A stretch of 63,998 nucleotides of DNA, filler included, from Circinaria calcarea (GCA_051942165.1; 8 parts of 8 records of this genome joined end to end with filler, not necessarily neighbours in it); one strand, 5' to 3'. Counted from the whole stretch's first letter, positions 7,989-56,568 are shown. A program made the numbers and translations. The notes: generated from the sequence alone by a model not told the origin.

Positions 7989-8088
7989 NNNNNNNNNNNN
8001 NNNNNNNNNNNNNNNNNNNNNNNNNNNNNNNNTTAATTAATTAANNNNNNNNNNNNNNNNNNNNNNNNNNNNNNNNNNNNNNNNNNNN
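7989..8088. other. Artificial contig-joining linker
   Basis: 44 N + TTAATTAATTAA (stop in all six frames) + 44 N. Confidence 0.98.
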
Positions 8089-16075: not shown

Positions 16076-16175
16076 NNNNNNNNNNNNNNNNNNNNNNNNN
16101 NNNNNNNNNNNNNNNNNNNTTAATTAATTAANNNNNNNNNNNNNNNNNNNNNNNNNNNNNNNNNNNNNNNNNNNN
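16076..16175. other. Artificial contig-joining linker
   Basis: Same 100-bp N/TTAATTAATTAA spacer. Confidence 0.98.
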
Positions 16176-24159: not shown

Positions 24160-24259
24160 NNNNNNNNNNNNNNNNNNNNNNNNNNNNNNNNNNNNNNNNN
24201 NNNTTAATTAATTAANNNNNNNNNNNNNNNNNNNNNNNNNNNNNNNNNNNNNNNNNNNN
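24160..24259. other. Artificial contig-joining linker
   Basis: Same 100-bp spacer. Confidence 0.98.
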
Positions 24260-32240: not shown

Positions 32241-32340
32241 NNNNNNNNNNNNNNNNNNNNNNNNNNNNNNNNNNNNNNNNNNNNTTAATTAATTAANNNN
32301 NNNNNNNNNNNNNNNNNNNNNNNNNNNNNNNNNNNNNNNN
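32241..32340. other. Artificial contig-joining linker
   Basis: Same 100-bp spacer. Confidence 0.98.
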
Positions 32341-40319: not shown

Positions 40320-40419
40320 NNNNNNNNNNNNNNNNNNNNNNNNNNNNNNNNNNNNNNNNNNNNTTAATTAATTAANNNNNNNNNNNNNNNNNNNNNNNNN
40401 NNNNNNNNNNNNNNNNNNN
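40320..40419. other. Artificial contig-joining linker
   Basis: Same 100-bp spacer. Confidence 0.98.
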
Positions 40420-40932
40420 TATTTTGGCCTGCGGTGTAGCAGAGATGACGAGAACCTGGCTTGGAGAATTCGGGTTGAACTCCACATGGTGGACCGGATG
40501 GGTTTCTGAGCTCGCGGACGCCTTTGCTGCAGTAGGATCCACGGATTTGAAAGCACGCAGGGTAGTCGGGGTCATTGAAGCAAAATCGTGTAGCTTGACG
40601 GTACAGTCGGTGGAGCCACTGATCATCCGCGAACCAGACGGATCGACCGTCAAGGTGGTAATTGTGCGCTCATGTGTCTTGAGGACCAGCTCGTGGGAAA
40701 CGGGGTAGTCATCTTCAGGGTCGGAGTCGCCTTCAGACTCGGAGTCGCCATCGCTACCGTCGTCGGCGTCCTGGTGCCCTCCTTCATCCTTTATCGTGGT
40801 TGCCGTTGAGAGGCGCTTCGTTCGCTCAATCTGAGCGGTGATGTTTGCCTCCTTGGTTTGTTTTCCAAAGCCATTGGGAAGGTACTGTCTCAAAGCTTCC
40901 TCTTCATCGATGAGCGCATCACCACTGTTCAT
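40420..40932 (-). CDS. WD40-repeat protein (WDR70/GAD-1-like), N-terminal part
   Basis: LPNGFGKQ, acidic tract, YPVSHELVLKTHER..DPSGSRMISGSTDCTVKLHDFASM..RAFKS. Confidence 0.85.
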
Positions 40933-41307
40933 CGTTCAAAAGGGTGTGCCTCCGAAGCTTTGGGAACGACACAGGAGTCCCCGGTGAGTGGAGTCTGTCC
41001 ATCTGAAAGTGGAGGCGAGAGCTGGGAACCAAATGGAAAGCGGAGGCGACTTTGACCTGCGCTAAACATTGCGATGCGCGAAACTGAATATGTGTACTCT
41101 GACAGTAATTAAAGGTTGCCCATATTATTATGATTGAACTGGCCTTCTTCTATTGACACCTGCGAGGCTTATTCACCTTTTAAAAAAAACACGCACGAGG
41201 ATCAACCTCTGGCAATATAAGGGATCCCTGCGCCATATACACCGTCCCTGCGCTTCCCACACCACTCTACACCCTATCCAACACTCTGTTATCCGAGAGT
41301 CGTCGTC

Positions 41308-41931
41308 ATGGATGAGACATTCACCCTCCTTCCTCTCCATCTCGATCCCCCAAGCAAAGCGATTTCAGCTCCCACCCTCGAACAAACTTCGTCGCTCGTC
41401 ACCGAGCTCGCCCTCCTAAACCAAACCCATCGGCAACTGCTAACGCTCGACACGCCATCTCAAGTGCCTCCAGCTCCTCTACCCCTCAATCCGAAAAGGT
41501 CGGCCCAGATAAATAAAATGCGGGAACAAGGGAACTCAATGTACCAGAAATCCAGGAGCCAACCAAGTGCGACCTCAGAAGCCGGCAAGCTTTACTCCTA
41601 CGCCCTCGAGATGGCACTTTTACGTCCGGCCTGGGAACCTTCAGCGACTGTGAGGGATGAAGTCGCCGTACTGCTAGCCAACAGAGCCCAAGTCAATATA
41701 AGTTTGCAGGCATGGCCGGAGGGGGCCGCAGATGCCGAGGGAAGTGTGGAGATGAAAAGACAGGGGAATGCAAAGGCATGGGGGAGGAGAGGGAAGTGTC
41801 TGGTGGAGATGGGAAGATGGGAGGAGGCAGCTGAGTGGGTTGCGAAAGGACTGGAATCCGAGGGGAATGACGCAGATCTACGGGGGCTGATGAAAGAAAT
41901 TGAGAAAAAGGCCGAGCAAGGTAGTATATAA
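41308..41931 (+). CDS. SEC72: Translocon subunit Sec72 (TPR)
   Basis: DETFTLLPLHLDPPSKAIS..PLNPKRSAQINKMREQGN..ALLRPAWEPS..AKAWGRRGKCL. Confidence 0.88.
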   Translation: MDETFTLLPLHLDPPSKAISAPTLEQTSSLVTELALLNQTHRQLLTLDTPSQVPPAPLPLNPKRSAQINKMREQGNSMYQKSRSQPSATSEAGKLYSYALEMALLRPAWEPSATVRDEVAVLLANRAQVNISLQAWPEGAADAEGSVEMKRQGNAKAWGRRGKCLVEMGRWEEAAEWVAKGLESEGNDADLRGLMKEIEKKAEQGSI

Positions 41932-44900
41932 TTAGGCCATTGCACCAGAATGGCATTGGGATTACATATGTCTCTTGAACTACCCCTCGAGCAAATCGCA
42001 ATGTACACGCTATATTCCTATGGTCGCCAGGCATAACAGGTGTTAGCGTGGTTGTTTTGCAGTAATCATAAAAGGCTCAAACGACACTTTGACTTCATCC
42101 GGAGAGACGGGATATACATCGGAGGATACCGGGAGTTGGTCAAAACCCGCTCTAACATTTTTAAAGCTGCACTTGGTCGGGTATGGGATAGCCGGGAGTT
42201 TAGCGCCTTAGCCAGTAGTTTATCCCTGGGGGTTTCCCACTATAGAAATTCATTCTTCACTTCACACCCAGATCAGCTCATGTCTTATTAGCGTTTAAAA
42301 TAATAAAAGCGATGATCTTTTAACATTATATATATGAATTCTGAGCAGGATTATGCCTTAGAGAAACTTTCCAATTTAATAGCCTAGTATCAAATAGCTG
42401 GTATTTCTTCTATATATATGATACCAATATTCGTAATCCCTTTTCTATTCTCCTTCTATCACTGCAAATCTCTCAAGCACCTCTGACTCAATAAATTTCT
42501 TACCAAAATGAAACAGCTAAACAGCAAACATGACGAGCCCATACCTACCCCCCCACCTACGTGTCCTTCAAGATGCGACTCACACCTCTCTCCCACTTAC
42601 TTCTCAACAACATAAGGTGGCTATCAAGCCTACCACTCCCAGTTACCTCCTCACCTCCAAGTTCGTCAAAATGCTGCTCCGACCTCTCCCCAACCCGCTT
42701 CCCACCGATTTCACAGATCACCCCTCTTCCTCCTCACCTCCGAATAATGAAGAAACCGTCGCTGATTACCCACCCGGCTACTCACCCTTCAGCTACATCG
42801 ATTCCAGCTTATCCAACTGGACTGGGCGAGAACAATATAATCGTTAACTCCGGCTAAGCCGGTTGTCAACCTCCCGGTCAAAGCGGTGGTTAAACTTCCA
42901 CCACCCAAGGCAGTGGTCAAGCTTCCGGTTCCTTCCGCGAAAGAGGGAATGGTTGATAAGAACACTACGGAACAAGAATCTGGGTTTACGAAAGTCAACC
43001 TTACCGCCATCAGCGAGAACGAGGCTAAAGACTCATTTGATCAAGATTGTTCCTTCGGCTCAGAATCGAGGGAACACCCTCCTTAACTTACTGCTCGCGG
43101 TACAATACTCTGGACCGCCAAGTTCAAATATACCGAATCTATTTCTAGCTCAGTAGTAAATTCTCTCTTTCTTTTTATATAAATATATTAATCCAAATAC
43201 GCCGGGCCTGCTGAGCCTTACCCCGAGGAACAGGAGGTCACCTTGTTCACGCGGGATCCTCTCTTTTCTAGAGATTATCGGACCAAGGGCAAGGGAGTTG
43301 ACCGTTCTGTAAGTTTCAACGCGTGTAGCCCGCCAAGCCGTTTTCTAATAAGCAGCAGCGTTCACAACAAAGACAGCCACCCCAGCAGTCTCTTATATCC
43401 CCTGCTCGAATTTTACCCTCTACCACCTCCAATGCTAGCTCAACGTCGCTCCCTTCCCTGCATCGGCCTTCTAGATTGGATCTGGCAAGCAATGAAAACG
43501 AAGATAAGGAGACGTTTGTCTCAGAATCACCTCTTGTATTCTTATAGTTTTCGGTCGCGTTCCCTAACCATCACCTATTTCCTCTCCCGTTTTCCCTGAT
43601 AACATTTATCGTGTATTCTGGAGTTGCATTTAATCCTCTGGTATCCTACCATTACTTCCCACGAGAGTCCTTAGCCTTGACTACGTAATTGCCTTGTAAC
43701 GAGAGGTTTCCGGCTCGAGCTAGCATTCTCATAATCCGGTTTCACTCGGCTCGAGCTGCTTATTAAGTTTAGCAATGAATACTTTGACTAGGTTACCCTA
43801 ATAGGATTAACGTCTACGAAAGAGACTCTGGCTACTTTTCATCATATGAACTGATCCCTTCTACTGTTCTCATTCTCCCTCACCCCGAAGCATAGATATT
43901 CACCTATATATTTTCTTCATCCCCCAACATACACATTCTTCCACACATTCACCCACACATTCACCCACACATTCACCTTGTCCGGCTACCTCTCACAGTG
44001 GCCCTAGCTAGCCCCGAGGCCTACCAAGCCCATCCCAAAGACCGACACCCAGACTGAAAAGAGGCTGGAACCTGAGGCACCAGCTTCTACCAAAGCCTCA
44101 ACGCGTGCCTGGCCCCCGAAGCCTCCCAGGGCCCCTAAGGAGGTAATAGGTATGTGTCAGCAAACTTTTGCCTTAGTATTCGGAATTCGGTTTTAATAAT
44201 AATAGATTTGTCCGGTCGGGAGTTGACCAACATTCAAGATATCACTCCATTGAGTGATATATGCCCAAGAGCACTCATAAACAGACGCTGCAACAGCCTT
44301 TCGTGCGATAGGATCAAAAGCATATGCAAGGTATGTTACCTCCATTGATCTACTTATAATCTCTCACATTTTGTTTCACTAGGAATATGAGAAGTCTGGT
44401 AAATGCGGTGATCAATCCTGTGCTAAGGCGCATGTACTGAGTACATGCGTCTCCATGATACGCGGTGTCTGTAAGTACCAGCCGTATTGCAAGTATCGGC
44501 ATGGGCAAGACAGAGAGTCCCACTAGAACAATCGTGACGAGAGTTATAAGATTTTCGAATAAACATAGGCCAATTCGGGACTGGTCTATAATCAAGGGGC
44601 TGGACGGGACCACTAGCGACTTTGGAGATTACATCTCTTCGTTTGTCATATCGCAGACAGTACATTTTATCGGTAGAACAAACACTCTCTTTCGCTCACT
44701 TGATTTGTTACTCACATCTTCACCACGAAACACTATTTCAAAAATTCTTCAACATCGCTCAGAATTGATCAATAATAATATGTGTTTGTACTTTGACGTC
44801 AGTCTCACCACATGTTCCTGGAGCAAAGAAGGACTGAATTGCTTCTTCCATAGTCGGACGGGGCGTGGAGTCAGAGATTGGCGCTTAGCTAACAGCATCT

Positions 44901-45739
44901 GTTCAGCCTCTTAGAGCGGGGTTCTCCCTAGTGGGAAAGAATCATACTCCACTCCGATGTTATTGATATAGGCGTGACGGGATCAGGCGAGGATGGATAT
45001 TACGAACCCCCAGAGATCTCCTCCACCGAGTGAAAGTGCAGACACCTAAAGAAACAAAATTTTCTTTATAAACCAACTCACGTTTTGGTCTTCGTCTTCG
45101 CAAGCGTACGGCCTCTAGGAGTGCCAACACCATAAACACGGCCTTCAGGAGTGCCAATACCACGGATTCTTTTATCGGGGTATGCCCATTCGATCTCATC
45201 GGAGAGAGATATAATACACCCAATAATGGTTGCCCAGACAAGAAGGTATGCACGGTAATTATCTCGCCTTTCTTTTAAATAAATATATACTAATTTGTCT
45301 AGGCATATAATACAGCCAAAGGCTGTTAAGAGCATTCTTATTTTAACGCCTACATTATTCTATCATATCTCTCTGCTTTGAAGAATCTTAATAATGGGTG
45401 CAATGATTCAACTTGTATTTTAAATCACGATCGCAATCGCCGGAATAATTTTCGGCGTCGATACAAGATAGGTGCCCATTAACATAAGACGCCGATCAGA
45501 GATCATCATAGTCAACGCAATATATGAGTATATCGGCCCGTCCGAGAGGTGGCCGATTCCATGACGGAGCGGGATAGCATTACAGTGTATCGCCACGTCC
45601 GAGACGTGTCGATTATTTTCATGGAGTGGAATGGTGTTGCATGGGTGTTCCGAGCTAGCTTTTACTGTTTTCCTGTTTGTGGTCCTCGAAACAGTGTCGG
45701 CTTCGTTACCAGTACATCACTGAGGCAGAAGCCCAGGGC

Positions 45740-46430
45740 AGCATCTCGCTCTTCGACTTTGCATGGTGTTATCGATAGAGTCCTCGATGGTTCACATCCG
45801 TGGAACACCAGCAACTGGCAAGACCACGTTAGCGATGCTATTAATACAGTACATCAACAATTCCGCAGAAATCGAACAAAAGGCAATCTATATTGCCATA
45901 CCGGCCCCTCCGCCTCCGGACCTCTGGCTCCGGACCCCAAGGCGGACCCCAAGGCGGACCCCAAACCTATCCCGTTAAGCCATACAGCGTGCGTTGTAAC
46001 TAGTATGAAACGCGACGGACAAAAACATCAAGATTAAGCAAGATAATAAGCTAATTATCGTATTGGACGAAGGGCAACATACCTATCAGGATTACATATT
46101 CTGGGAGGGCATGAAATTAAACAACGACATAGTGGCGCCAGTTACAAATACACCGTATTATGTTCCTTTCTGTGTCCGGGGAAGTCCATCGGGAAAACCT
46201 TGGGATCGCGAATTAAAACCATCCGAAAGTAATCTTTCGAATATTACGTTGTCTTCATCACAGCGTTTAGGTTTCATACCCGATCTGGGTAAACTGAGTT
46301 TATTCTTCACTGAATCCGAATTTCAAGATGCAATCAATTCATACGAATATCGTAACCATAAACCGTTCAAGGTCGACTCGGAGGCGAGGGAGTATCTTTT
46401 TGCTATTACGTGGTCCATGCTCAATACTCT
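45740..46430 (+). pseudogene. Degenerate P-loop NTPase (resembles fungal Crinkler-associated NTPases)
   Basis: Walker A VHIRGTPATGKTTLAMLL, Walker B LIIVLDEGQHTY..W, FCVRGSPS, LFFTESEFQDAI..EAREYLFAIT in one frame, with three stops at 45976-46008 and a probable frameshift near 45785. Confidence 0.7.
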
Positions 46431-46545
46431 TTATATATCTCAAAAAGCGTTCTCCGCTATACTAACTTTGAGAGTTACAAATATAGATGGGATTATACAC
46501 CACTACACATACTGCTCGACACTTTCTCTGCCACCAATCACATCG

Positions 46546-47777
46546 ATGGACTCACCAGAATCCAAAGGCCCCAAGATAAACGAGGGGCCGGAGAAGATAA
46601 AGCCGAAAAGTACGGGATGGACAACGCTCTCCCATAATGGTTCTATGTTTCCAGCTGAGTACAAAGCATTCCCAGAAGATGTGACGTTGAAATACGACGG
46701 AATTCCAGTCTTGATATCCATCGATGTATAGGAAATAGCAGAAGCCTACGCTGTTTAGTATATTTTGAAGGATAAACTCCTATCAGCCACCGAGAAGATC
46801 AATTTTTTCAATAATTTTAAGAGTTTGATTGAGAGCACAGGAGGAGCTAAAAGCATCGACGGTATTCTTATCCAGATTCAAGAATGCGATTATTTAAATT
46901 TTGACTCTGTGGTCAACTACACCAAATTAGGGCAGAATTATAACCCACGATATTTAGAAGCCGAGGGAGCTTTTAGATTCTATATCTGCGAGGGGATCGA
47001 CGAGAAAACAGAAAGCTATCGTATCGAGGCACCAGGTATCTTTTAGGGAAAGGCTAATAAAAACAAGAGTGGTAGAATAAGAAGGAGGATTGAGCCCGAA
47101 GATATTACTATTAATATTAATTAAGATATCCCGGGGGCACCGGAAGGACGAGAAGTAGGATATAATCCTAAACGTTAATAGAACTTGATTTTATGGGCAA
47201 GGAAGGTATACGCTTTAAAAAATAGGTTTTTGTAGGAGAGGATGTTTTCAATAATTTCCATTCTTTCACAGCATTCCCGAAGGTGACTACAAGTAAGGTT
47301 TTTGACCTTATAACTATTGGTATACCTTTCTACTTATTCAAGCATAACTCCATCAATAGTCACCTTAACGAGTATAAGTTAGGATTGACTAGCAAGGCTT
47401 TCCGAACCTTTTATGCATCAATTTTAATGGATACTTTACTTCGACAAATACTATTCCCAATCGCCGATATCGAAGCTATCAACGCGTTCAGGATAGCCCT
47501 TCAAGAAGTGGCTGAATTTTGCAACCATAAACATACGGCCAGAGGAGGTATGCATGAAGAGGTTGCGTCCACAAGAACCATAACGGTACGCGAATGATTA
47601 TAATAGAGAAATTTAGTAGCATTATCAAACTAACACATCTAGTACTGCATTGACCCACGCATCATCGTTGCTTTTGCAAGGCGAGGTGGCATCCCGTTGG
47701 AGAAGTTCTTCCCGGGTCGACTAATCAGACGATTTCAATGGGCTATTTTAGAGGTCGATGGAAACTGGCAATACTAA
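46546..47777 (+). pseudogene. Diverged, truncated type IB DNA topoisomerase (Top1-like) paralogue
   Basis: Collinear Top1 motifs WTTLSHNG, LKYDG, NFFNNFK, YRIEAPGIF*G, RRRIEPEDITINI, DFMGKEGIRF, GLTSKAFRTFYAS, EVAEFCNH, intron 47586-47642, YCIDPR..PLEKFF..RFQWAI. Stops at 46729, 46756, 47044, 47122, 47223. Confidence 0.88.
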
Positions 47778-48394
47778 CGAGCCCGGTCTCTAGTCTGGGT
47801 CAGGGGCTACAGTCAATGGGAATCGAAAGCTATGTGTGTTTAGGGAAGAAGCTTGTGATGGAAAAGCTAGAGCACTCAGTAACAACAGAAAAAACTACTG
47901 CTAAGAGGGTCCGATAGCCCTACCAGGTTAATCTTGTACCAGTAGGGATAAGAATTAGTATAATATCTCAGATTCTCATCGTGCTCTCCTGTTATTAAGT
48001 GAGTAAAGCGCCTTTTACTTCACCAAAGTAAATGCTTGTCTGAAGTAAGTGACTTTTAATGCCCGTTCTTGGGCCTATAAGATAATATTTCATTAATTTA
48101 TTTTTCACTTTATTGATATAATACGCTACTAAATACCAATCTCACCATCCTCTTCAATCGAACAGCAGGGGAGGGTTTGGCCCGAGCCAAACGTTTATCA
48201 TGTTAAAAGAACGCTGGGCTGAGGGGGACGGTGATGGCGACCCCGTCGACAACAAAAGCATAAGGAAAGCGAAAGTCCTTCCACTAATGCTTAAAAAACG
48301 CCCGCACACGCAGACAAACGCAGTTGGAATACAAACTTGCTCCGGTGATACCTCCCTTCCTTCTTTTCCCTCAGTCTGCTGCCCTGCCCTGCCC

Positions 48395-48494
48395 NNNNNN
48401 NNNNNNNNNNNNNNNNNNNNNNNNNNNNNNNNNNNNNNTTAATTAATTAANNNNNNNNNNNNNNNNNNNNNNNNNNNNNNNNNNNNNNNNNNNN
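48395..48494. other. Artificial contig-joining linker
   Basis: Same 100-bp spacer. Confidence 0.98.
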
Positions 48495-49487: not shown

Positions 49488-50532
49488 TCAGATCCGCTTC
49501 TCGACCATCCGCAGGAAATCCCCCAGCAGCGCGCCTCCGTCTTCCACCAGCAGCTCCTTGAACTCGGGCGCTTTCACCAGGATGTCCATCTCAAACCCAA
49601 TATAGCGTACCAGCAGTTCCCTTAGGTCTTCGACCCCGTCATCGACGTCTGCGGTATTGGCGTAGACGTACCGGATGAGCTCGACAATGTCGCCCGCGCG
49701 CTCCAGGTAGAGGGTGTAGATGGCGAGGGTTTGATGGAGGTTCTGGATTGCTTGGGGTTTTAGGGGTTGGATGTCGTATTTCTCGGCGAAGACGTAGAGA
49801 CGGGTGTGGGAAAGGAAGACCTCGGTGTAGTCTTCACTATTATCGCGGTTAGAGCGAGGGGGGGGAGGGGGAGGGTGAGTTTCCAGGAATGCATATCCGA
49901 GCTCGATGAAGGACTCCTTTAGGGCAGTTTTGGAAGATCGTTGCTGCCCGAATCCCACGCTAGGCGGAAATCCTACGGCCTTTTGACTTTTCTTATCCTT
50001 CTTTGAGTGTCTTGAAAACCCACTCCATCCGGAATCAACCGCCGCTTGAGATGCTGGAAATTCTGACACCTGTGCTACTTCTACTGTCGGTTCCTCCGCG
50101 GTTTGTACCGAAAAATTGGATAGCGAAGGTATTGGACTCGTTACTAGTTCCACTTCCGGTATAGGTTTCTTTAGTTTAATCTTGCCTCCACGTTCCTCAA
50201 GAACTTCAAACATTGGGCTCTCCATGCTGCTTTCATAAGCTGCACTATGTGCTGCTGGAAAGTAATACCCAGTGTAGGCCCACCGAATGAAGCGGGTGAA
50301 AGTACCAACGTCCACATCATCGAGGACTGCGAACCCCTTTTGTGCTTCTGACATGCGGCCATTGATCATACGATCAAGGGGCTTGGAATGTTTGGCCACC
50401 AGCGCCGAATGAATATACAGCGATTTGCCCTCGACAATGAACTTGAAGGGTGTAGAAGCGAAAATACTAGACAGTCAGATTGTATTAGAGACCGACAGGA
50501 AACAGAGCTTACACTTCGTCGGGATCGGACAT
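49488..50532 (-). CDS. BTB/POZ-domain protein
   Basis: Short first exon, intron, then LYIHSALVAKHSKPLDRMINGRMSEAQ..FTRFIRWAYTGYY..EDYTEVFLSHTRLYVFAEKYDI. Confidence 0.88.
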
Positions 50533-56468: not shown

Positions 56469-56568
56469 NNNNNNNNNNNNNNNNNNNNNNNNNNNNNNNN
56501 NNNNNNNNNNNNTTAATTAATTAANNNNNNNNNNNNNNNNNNNNNNNNNNNNNNNNNNNNNNNNNNNN
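56469..56568. other. Artificial contig-joining linker
   Basis: Same 100-bp spacer. Confidence 0.98.

Follow-up and report, generated by a model that had tools for sequence, protein, structure and literature searches.

What is a eukaryote-type DNA topoisomerase gene that can be read only through stop codons, that lacks the usual linker and that appears to carry a cysteine where the catalytic tyrosine should stand, and was it ever a working gene of its own? The question is raised by a short locus (positions 46546-47777, plus strand) in a 63,998-nucleotide stretch of DNA from Circinaria calcarea (GCA_051942165.1), called the window below. Translated through five stop codons and one frameshift, the locus gives a eukaryote-type topoisomerase IB (TopIB). 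It is a broken member of the fungal TopIB lineage, without the linker and without the block that holds the equivalent of R488 of human TOP1. The explanation that we favour, with moderate confidence, is that it is the dead relic of a duplicated ascomycete nuclear TOP1, which would have had a long constrained life as a compact TopIB-like protein before inactivation and neutral decay.

A broken topoisomerase IB gene

All three Pfam domains of the TopIB family are found at the locus in the correct order, each scoring well over its cut-off, in line with the original prediction that reading through the stops would give TOP1 motifs in order. The features of the locus are as follows.

46546-47777, plus strand: the whole TopIB-like pseudogene, from ATG to native TAA, as delimited in the original prediction.
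46618-47148, plus strand: cap or DNA-binding domain, Topoisom_I_N (PF02919), 108 bits against a cut-off of 25, E 6e-31, profile positions 3-182 of 213.
46729-47225, plus strand: span of the five in-frame stops (TAG 46729, TAG 46756, TAG 47044, TAA 47122 and TAG 47223).
47149-47178, plus strand: junction of an out-of-frame deletion, with change of frame, placed by Pfam, tblastn and alignment to human TOP1 chains.
47178-47564, plus strand: catalytic core remnant, Topoisom_I (PF01028), 88 bits against a cut-off of 23.7, E 8e-25, profile positions 88-207 of 228.
47529-47585, plus strand: replacement of the linker, 19 codons from CNH to the splice site or Tyr.
47586-47642, plus strand: probable intron of 57 nucleotides (GTACGC ... 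ACTAAC ... TAG), with a guanine-plus-cytosine (GC) content of 0.30.
47643-47774, plus strand: C-terminal domain, Topo_C_assoc (PF14370; Pfam match 47649-47774), 43.3 bits against a cut-off of 25.1, E 3.5e-11, profile positions 30-70 of 70.

With five stops per ~390 codons, against a mean of ~24 per 390 in the other five frames, the open frame is far from what chance would give. The five stops and the single frameshift nevertheless leave the locus without the uninterrupted reading frame expected of a live gene. No stop falls in the C-terminal domain, and comparison with full-length fungal TOP1 by tblastn places the native stop (TAA 47775) at the homologous C-terminus. The cap domain carries an insertion of ascomycete type (STGGAK, 46834-46851), its charged helical region is shortened by about 12-14 residues and its final 31 profile positions have gone with the deletion. 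The catalytic core is likewise incomplete, Topoisom_I profile positions 1-87 being absent across the whole window, and what is left of it includes a 9-residue in-frame insertion. In all, ~118 profile positions, or about 124 residues (human ~400-523), are missing at the junction, and this out-of-frame deletion is likely to be the lesion that inactivated the gene. An intron of 27 nucleotides with GT-AG borders at the frameshift (47155-47181) was considered and rejected, being too short and unable to restore the missing block.

Catalytic residues and the tyrosine slot

Alignment to human TOP1 chains places the equivalent of K532 at 47199-47201 (the end of DFMGK, 47187-47201), that of R590 at 47403-47405 (in AFRT, 47397-47408) and that of H632 at 47526-47528 (the end of CNH, 47520-47528). 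R488 sits inside the deleted block and is lost, and a tblastn search with full-length fungal TOP1 did not pick up that block anywhere else in the window. The inventory of kept and missing residues is thus the one originally predicted. The further proposal that the active site had been remodelled while the protein was alive finds no support: as the R488 block was taken out by an inactivating, out-of-frame deletion, its loss is a lesion and not a design.

The segment equivalent to the tyrosine motif reads YCIDPR (47643-47660), with Tyr encoded by TAC at 47643-47645 and Cys by TGC at 47646-47648. Among the database matches, the Y-x-DPR spacing is kept in 94 of 94 true motif instances (a 95th regular-expression match was excluded as it lies at a different DPR site), which argues that Cys occupies the slot of the catalytic Tyr, with a Tyr one residue earlier, as had been proposed. 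A home-made hidden Markov model (HMM) of the C-terminal domain also aligns YCIDPR without gaps and puts Cys in the Tyr slot. A different alignment comes from MAFFT and phmmer: the neighbouring Tyr is set against Y723 and the Cys becomes a one-residue insertion, a slip of one codon that retains three conserved residues, Tyr included. The gapless and the slipped alignments are about equally good, and under either of them the nucleophile is out of canonical register.

Three database matches (P0043, P0057 and P0128) have a Tyr at the position of human N722, giving 'YY', and have linkers of 12, 35 and 54 residues, all below the median of 93; a link between this substitution and loss of the linker is possible. 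Since such forms exist, an ancestor with YY and one A>G change would suffice to produce the Cys. Its presence in the Tyr slot can therefore be explained by one late A>G change or by a one-codon slip and, because about a quarter of the invariant residues have decayed, the change from Tyr to Cys may be merely one lesion more.

The missing linker and a putative intron

The original prediction had described the protein as linker-less, and the distance from CNH to the Tyr agrees with this. It amounts to 22 residues if 47586-47642 is spliced out and to 41 if that stretch is read through. Of 149 database matches, 92 carry both motifs; in these the distance ranges from 12 to 319 with a median of 93, and in the nearest fungal TOP1, that of Bacidia gigantensis (P0008), it is 172. 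The coiled-coil linker usually found between core and C-terminal domain is absent, although this is a usual and not an essential feature of the family: natural short-linker forms exist, the distance being 30 residues or fewer in 7 of the 92.

The stretch 47586-47642 has a perfect ACTAAC nine nucleotides ahead of its TAG, and five of its 19 in-frame codons are stops, against five in ~390 elsewhere. The C-terminal HMM scores 51.0 bits with the stretch spliced out, 47.5 with it read through and 47.4 for exon 2 alone. From these sequence features we take it to be probably an intron. The alternative, that it is decayed coding sequence, is the less likely of the two; it is kept in play by the small gap between the HMM scores and by the fact that phmmer and Pfam can also match the read-through stretch with the conserved segment that precedes the Tyr.

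Relatives and fungal origin

An exhaustive search of 1.84 billion representatives with a 138-residue core query returned 175 matches at E <= 0.001, none of them above 45% identity. The best true match, at 41%, is the 883-residue canonical TOP1 of the lichen-forming ascomycete B. gigantensis (P0008, XP_044666274.1), and the pseudogene as a whole is 35% identical to this protein over 364-370 columns. The top-scoring match of all (P0007) was discarded as spurious, being a repeat protein that is matched 16 times by a 32-residue stretch. A word-index search of longer proteins with the N-domain as query produced only two distant canonical matches from 459 candidates. Scans of metagenome contigs and of viral contigs gave no relative: the single metagenome locus returned, L001, fits the search pattern alone and has no TopIB homology, and there is no relative among the eight pattern matches in the viral contigs.

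Three lines of evidence point to the origin of the gene. In a tree of 22 rows, a branch supported at 99 in the Shimodaira-Hasegawa-like approximate likelihood ratio test (SH-aLRT) unites the pseudogene with six of the seven fungal TOP1 rows, P0008 being the nearest; the seventh, Gigaspora P0043, lies outside that branch. An insertion in the cap, of the form S/T-GG...DG, is common to the pseudogene and P0008 and absent from the other 40 aligned rows; it is also present in the fungal-looking P0009 and in yeast Top1 (1OIS). Finally, the best match of the N-domain in the PDB is that same N-terminal fragment of yeast Top1, 1OIS (E 1e-24, against 4.5e-16 for human). Given the grouping in the tree, the insertion and the match to 1OIS, we conclude from sequence comparison that the pseudogene is to be read as a descendant of an ascomycete TOP1 and not as an import from a distant lineage.

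Among the matches there is also a group of TopIBs of 1000-1350 residues (P0140, P0108 and P0069) with additional domains at the C-terminus (NADAR, GDSL lipase or OGFr_N), in which the Pfam core and C-terminal matches lie only ~10 residues apart.

Probable constraint before inactivation

The way in which the locus departs from its relatives bears on whether it ever worked. Of the 52 family columns with a conservation of 95% or more, it matches the consensus at 39, and the match falls to 25/37, 23/60, 22/79 and 18/122 in increasingly variable bins, so that motifs are kept and spacers diverged just as the original prediction had it. Save for the loss of ~25% at invariant columns, this gradient resembles that of very divergent living TopIBs. 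A second measure takes five fungal proxies (TOP1s of basidiomycetes, chytrids and blastocladians) in place of the ancestor, a conservative choice: identity to Bacidia TOP1, relative to that of other fungal TOP1s, is retained to 0.74-0.78 in conserved columns and to 0.47-0.55 in variable ones.

The stop codons are too few for so divergent a sequence to have drifted all the way. In a neutral simulation, five stops correspond to ~0.14 substitutions per site and to 75% amino-acid retention; when the simulation is carried on to 35-44% retention, 12-14 stops are expected, and the probability of five or fewer is 0.005-0.01.

The length differences also follow the frame. Each of the three tblastn segments is in a single frame, despite at least five length differences that include the cap shortening of ~12-14 residues, a 2-residue gap, the 9-residue insertion and the loss of ~150 residues of linker, and only the deletion of the R488 block shifts the frame. 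By our own calculation, at least five of six length changes in frame would have a probability of ~0.02 if insertions and deletions ignored the frame. The linker deletion, moreover, coincides exactly with domain borders.

As to the kind of change, 12 of the 25 replacements at columns at least 80% conserved are conservative (K/R, L/I/M, D/E, F/Y), and C>T or G>A accounts for 5-6 of 42 minimal nucleotide changes at conserved codons and four stops, which is no excess. Repeat-induced point mutation (RIP) is usually diagnosed from a TpA/ApT ratio above ~0.89 together with a (CpA+TpG)/(ApC+GpT) ratio below ~1.03. The two indices are 0.91 and 1.09 for the locus, 1.08 and 0.97 for 47001-48000 and 0.82 and 1.21 for the window, and within the locus both thresholds are passed only in 47001-48000. 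The earlier argument about RIP is thus largely moot, the indices being no more than mildly shifted.

Taken together, the conservation gradient, the few stops, the in-frame lengths and the non-RIP replacement spectrum argue for a history in two phases, and the pattern of change, so far as it can be read from this sequence, differs from uniform neutral decay. The idea of a distinct, long-lived paralogue that was later inactivated is supported by the same evidence, and the gene probably encoded a long-lived working protein before its death. In the history that we propose, a duplicate TOP1 would have lost, in frame, its charged N-terminal domain, some of the charged helical region of the cap and the entire coiled-coil linker. 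Fast evolution under purifying selection would have followed, the product being a compact protein resembling a type IB topoisomerase. Inactivation would in the simplest case have come about through one out-of-frame deletion of ~370 base pairs that removed the equivalent of human ~400-523. Neutral decay of ~0.14 substitutions per site would have followed, bringing the five stops and the loss of about a quarter of the invariant residues.

As the cap, the core and the C-terminal domain are in place and three of the four catalytic residues that can be tested are kept, relaxation of DNA through the usual covalent Tyr-phosphodiester intermediate is the most likely activity of the living protein. We found nothing to support the suggested role of clamp, decoy or altered nuclease. 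The linker of the human enzyme (636-712) is reported not to be required for catalysis, and its absence to go with a lower sensitivity to camptothecin drugs (PMC3120799). For that reason the living protein may also have been more distributive and less camptothecin-sensitive than canonical TOP1, although we give less weight to the proposed activity and to these two properties than to the history itself.

Several observations weigh against this account. A larger tree, of 42 rows, leaves the pseudogene unplaced at the midpoint root, its end branch measuring 3.55 where the median is 0.79. The fungal placement therefore depends on the smaller tree and one insertion. Across the trees the end branch comes to about 3.6-3.9 changes per column, compared with medians of 0.74-0.79. 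No relative, intact or broken, was found in the protein, metagenome-contig or viral-contig searches, and the phase of selection is consequently read from one sequence. The simulation starts from a back-translated proxy ancestor and uses a simple mutation model. Lastly, the GC content of the locus (0.38-0.41) is below that of flanking non-coding DNA (0.45), and a short neutral phase leaves this low value unexplained.

A possible fusion with an upstream NTPase

The strongest competing explanation holds that the TopIB module was never free-standing but formed the C-terminal half of a chimeric gene, fused to an AAA-like P-loop nucleoside triphosphatase (NTPase) at 45724-46545. A partial duplicate of TOP1 without its 5' exons would have recruited the upstream gene, and in this form the fusion is a compatible refinement of the history proposed above. 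Two segments make up the upstream part.

46009-46545, plus strand: upstream open frame, continuous with TopIB, free of stops over 179 codons where the other frames have 8-16.
45724-46008, plus strand: decayed P-loop segment in the same frame, with a Walker A-like GTPATGKTT (45802-45828), a low-complexity stretch and three clustered stops.

The upstream frame, which contains a Walker B-like motif (46051-46077), runs on past the ATG to form a single open frame of 240 codons (46009-46731). The Walker A-like and Walker B-like motifs and the TopIB cap domain thus share one frame, and from the NTPase to the first conserved residue of TopIB there is neither a stop in frame nor intergenic sequence. 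GC content by codon position is nearly equal in the upstream frame (0.41/0.37/0.43) and in the N part of TopIB (0.44/0.36/0.43), unlike that of eight intact open reading frames in the window. An Atlas feature search with the upstream frame gave clusters in which 28-31% of members carry AAA_35 (scores 0.88-0.92), which is to be taken as a lead only. An AlphaFold2 model of the read-through NTPase region, made without an alignment, was unusable (mean predicted local distance difference test score 30.5, predicted template modelling score 0.17).

Other results speak against a fusion. The Pfam P-loop matches are all under cut-off, the best being KaiC ATPase (E 0.0015) and nSTAND3 (E 0.0034). Word-index searches found no homologue of the upstream frame: the 240-codon frame gave 0 matches from 1037 candidates among longer proteins, and the read-through NTPase region gave 0 from 4310 candidates among proteins of similar length. 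None of the 15 scanned TopIB matches of at least 889 residues has an N-terminal NTPase. Two dead neighbouring genes could, moreover, be joined in frame by a deletion with a chance of one in three, and the open frame is not decisive in itself because, at the rate at which TopIB has decayed, 179 codons would be free of stops with a probability of ~0.1. Since no stop or spacer separates the two modules, we treat as a serious possibility that the gene may have been an ATPase-TopIB chimera, while holding that the balance tilts away from it.

Other explanations

Plain neutral decay, in which the locus would be a segmental duplicate of the host TOP1 that was dead from birth and the conservation of motifs an artefact of homology detection, seems to us improbable. 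It is consistent with the failure of the searches to turn up intact relatives, the very outcome that the original prediction had attached to neutral decay. It also agrees with the alteration of 13 of the 52 nearly invariant residues, the hit to the Tyr slot and the one large out-of-frame deletion, as well as with the low GC content and with RIP indices mildly shifted in the RIP direction (47001-48000), and an alignment anchored on conserved residues does inflate their retention. At a retention of 0.75, however, ~96 matches to Bacidia would be expected in the 262 variable columns and only 62 are seen (z about -4 by our own binomial estimate). Nor does it fit the deficit of stops for a sequence at 35% identity, the rule of at least five length differences in frame to one out of frame, the exact placement of the linker deletion at domain borders or the spectrum of change, which is not RIP-like.

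Transfer from a virus, a mobile element or a distant eukaryote with a compact TopIB, followed by decay, is very improbable: compact short-linker TopIBs of eukaryote type do exist in metagenomic sources, the GC content of the locus is under that of host genes and the TopIB part is an orphan, as is the upstream frame, but the pseudogene groups with fungal TOP1 (SH-aLRT 99) and carries the ascomycete-type insertion and a typical short intron in ascomycete style, no terminal repeats flank it, no relative appeared in viral contigs, and short-linker forms are no closer to it in identity than canonical TOP1.

Genomic surroundings

The window consists of eight draft-assembly contigs in descending order of size (7988, 7987, 7984, 7981, 7979, 7975, 7974 and 7430 base pairs), linked by spacers of the form N44-TTAATTAATTAA-N44. 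As these are separate contigs joined together, the true context of the TopIB locus is 40420-48394 only, and gene neighbourhood across the spacers is not real. A six-frame Pfam scan of the rest of this contig found nothing beyond the end of a WD40 gene, a TPR frame and the TopIB domains.

7989-8088, 16076-16175, 24160-24259, 32241-32340, 40320-40419, 48395-48494 and 56469-56568: spacers between the contigs.
Within 40420-48394, minus strand: end of a WD40 gene (Pfam).
41221-41931: TPR frame (Pfam).

Between the TPR frame and the NTPase and TopIB relics lie ~3.5 kilobases with no recognisable genes. The TopIB locus is not flanked by terminal or inverted repeats of the sort expected of a mobile element, and the window holds no second copy of it. 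The notion that the locus was a self-resistance copy belonging to a biosynthetic cluster is unsupported, the Pfam scan of the contig having given no sign of such a cluster.

Parts of the gene-free region (42500-43100, 43931-43977 and 45108-45162) consist of proline-rich low-complexity frames and short tandem repeats, among them a 12-nucleotide unit of ACACATTC type present three times and a 30-nucleotide unit present twice. RIP-like dinucleotide indices pass the usual thresholds in 42501-43500. Elsewhere in the window there are three BTB/POZ open frames, two on one contig (33548-34351 and 35481-36287) and one on another (49488-50474).

Significance and comparison with known systems

Fungi are generally assumed to have just one nuclear TOP1. 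The listings and abstract openings returned by a literature search mention neither a TOP1 paralogue in fungi nor TOP1 as a cluster resistance gene, which in excerpts of this kind is no proof of absence. A second TOP1 lineage, if real, would mean that the enzyme can be naturally pared down and yet be kept by selection. The parts shed (the N-terminal domain, some charged cap helices and the linker) are those thought to guide DNA rotation and drug sensitivity, and the locus would then amount to a natural experiment, informative about both controlled rotation and resistance to poisons of the camptothecin type. Because the gene is dead, single and without relatives, its value is that of a lead for targeted searches of ascomycete genomes, with lichen-forming species at the head of the list, and not of a finding in itself; with no living relative found, it is a curiosity rather than a new system, and it deserves no more than moderate to low interest until an intact relative turns up or the fusion is confirmed.

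The closest known system is canonical ascomycete TOP1 (Bacidia P0008 and yeast 1OIS), with which the pseudogene shares the same three domains in the same order, the equivalents of K532, R590 and H632, the placement of C-terminus and stop and the S/T-GG...DG insertion in the cap. It differs from the Bacidia enzyme in having no charged N-terminal domain, shortened charged cap helices and a 9-residue insertion in the core; in the distance from CNH to Tyr (22 against 172); and in its deletion of ~124 core residues, its Cys in the Tyr slot and its five stops and frameshift.

Natural short-linker TopIBs (P0071, P0077, P0088, P0107 and P0112, and P0043 and P0161 of Gigaspora margarita, annotated 'DNA topoisomerase 1') have 12-26 residues from CNH to Tyr. 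They are intact, with complete cap, core and C-terminal domains, and keep the Tyr in the Y-x-DPR slot. The pseudogene has the Tyr at the N722 place in common with the 'YY' matches, all of which are short-linkered. At 35-40% identity, the short-linker forms are no closer to the pseudogene than canonical TOP1 is, and P0077, the only one of those listed that is in the alignment, is without the ascomycete insertion; loss of the linker in the pseudogene therefore looks independent.

Human topo70 without its linker is an engineered protein. It has the architecture that the living fungal protein would have had, but as a construct it is no natural paralogue. N722S is listed as a resistance mutation in the paper on the human linker (PMC3120799), and at this place the pseudogene has Thr or Tyr, depending on the alignment. 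The TopIB of Leishmania, a heterodimer (PDB 2B9S, chains A and B), is active although no continuous linker connects its core to the Tyr-bearing C-terminal domain, and the C-terminal part of the pseudogene finds its best PDB match in 2b9s_B (E 1.6e-5). The Leishmania enzyme is made from two separate gene products, whereas in the pseudogene the parts belong to one gene and are joined by ~20 residues.

Reverse gyrase, found in thermophilic prokaryotes, combines a helicase-like domain with a type IA enzyme. It is a conceptual parallel to the fusion only, as a union of ATPase and topoisomerase, and no homology is implied. That the locus is the fossil of an AAA-like P-loop ATPase fused to a compact, linker-less TopIB, ATP-coupled or ATP-regulated and selected in a lineage of lichen-type ascomycetes, is a speculative and rather unlikely extension of that idea. 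If true, the upstream fusion would be a new enzyme architecture, with intact relatives to be expected in unsampled fungal genomes, and the chimera would be the type IB counterpart of the ATPase-topoisomerase logic of reverse gyrase.

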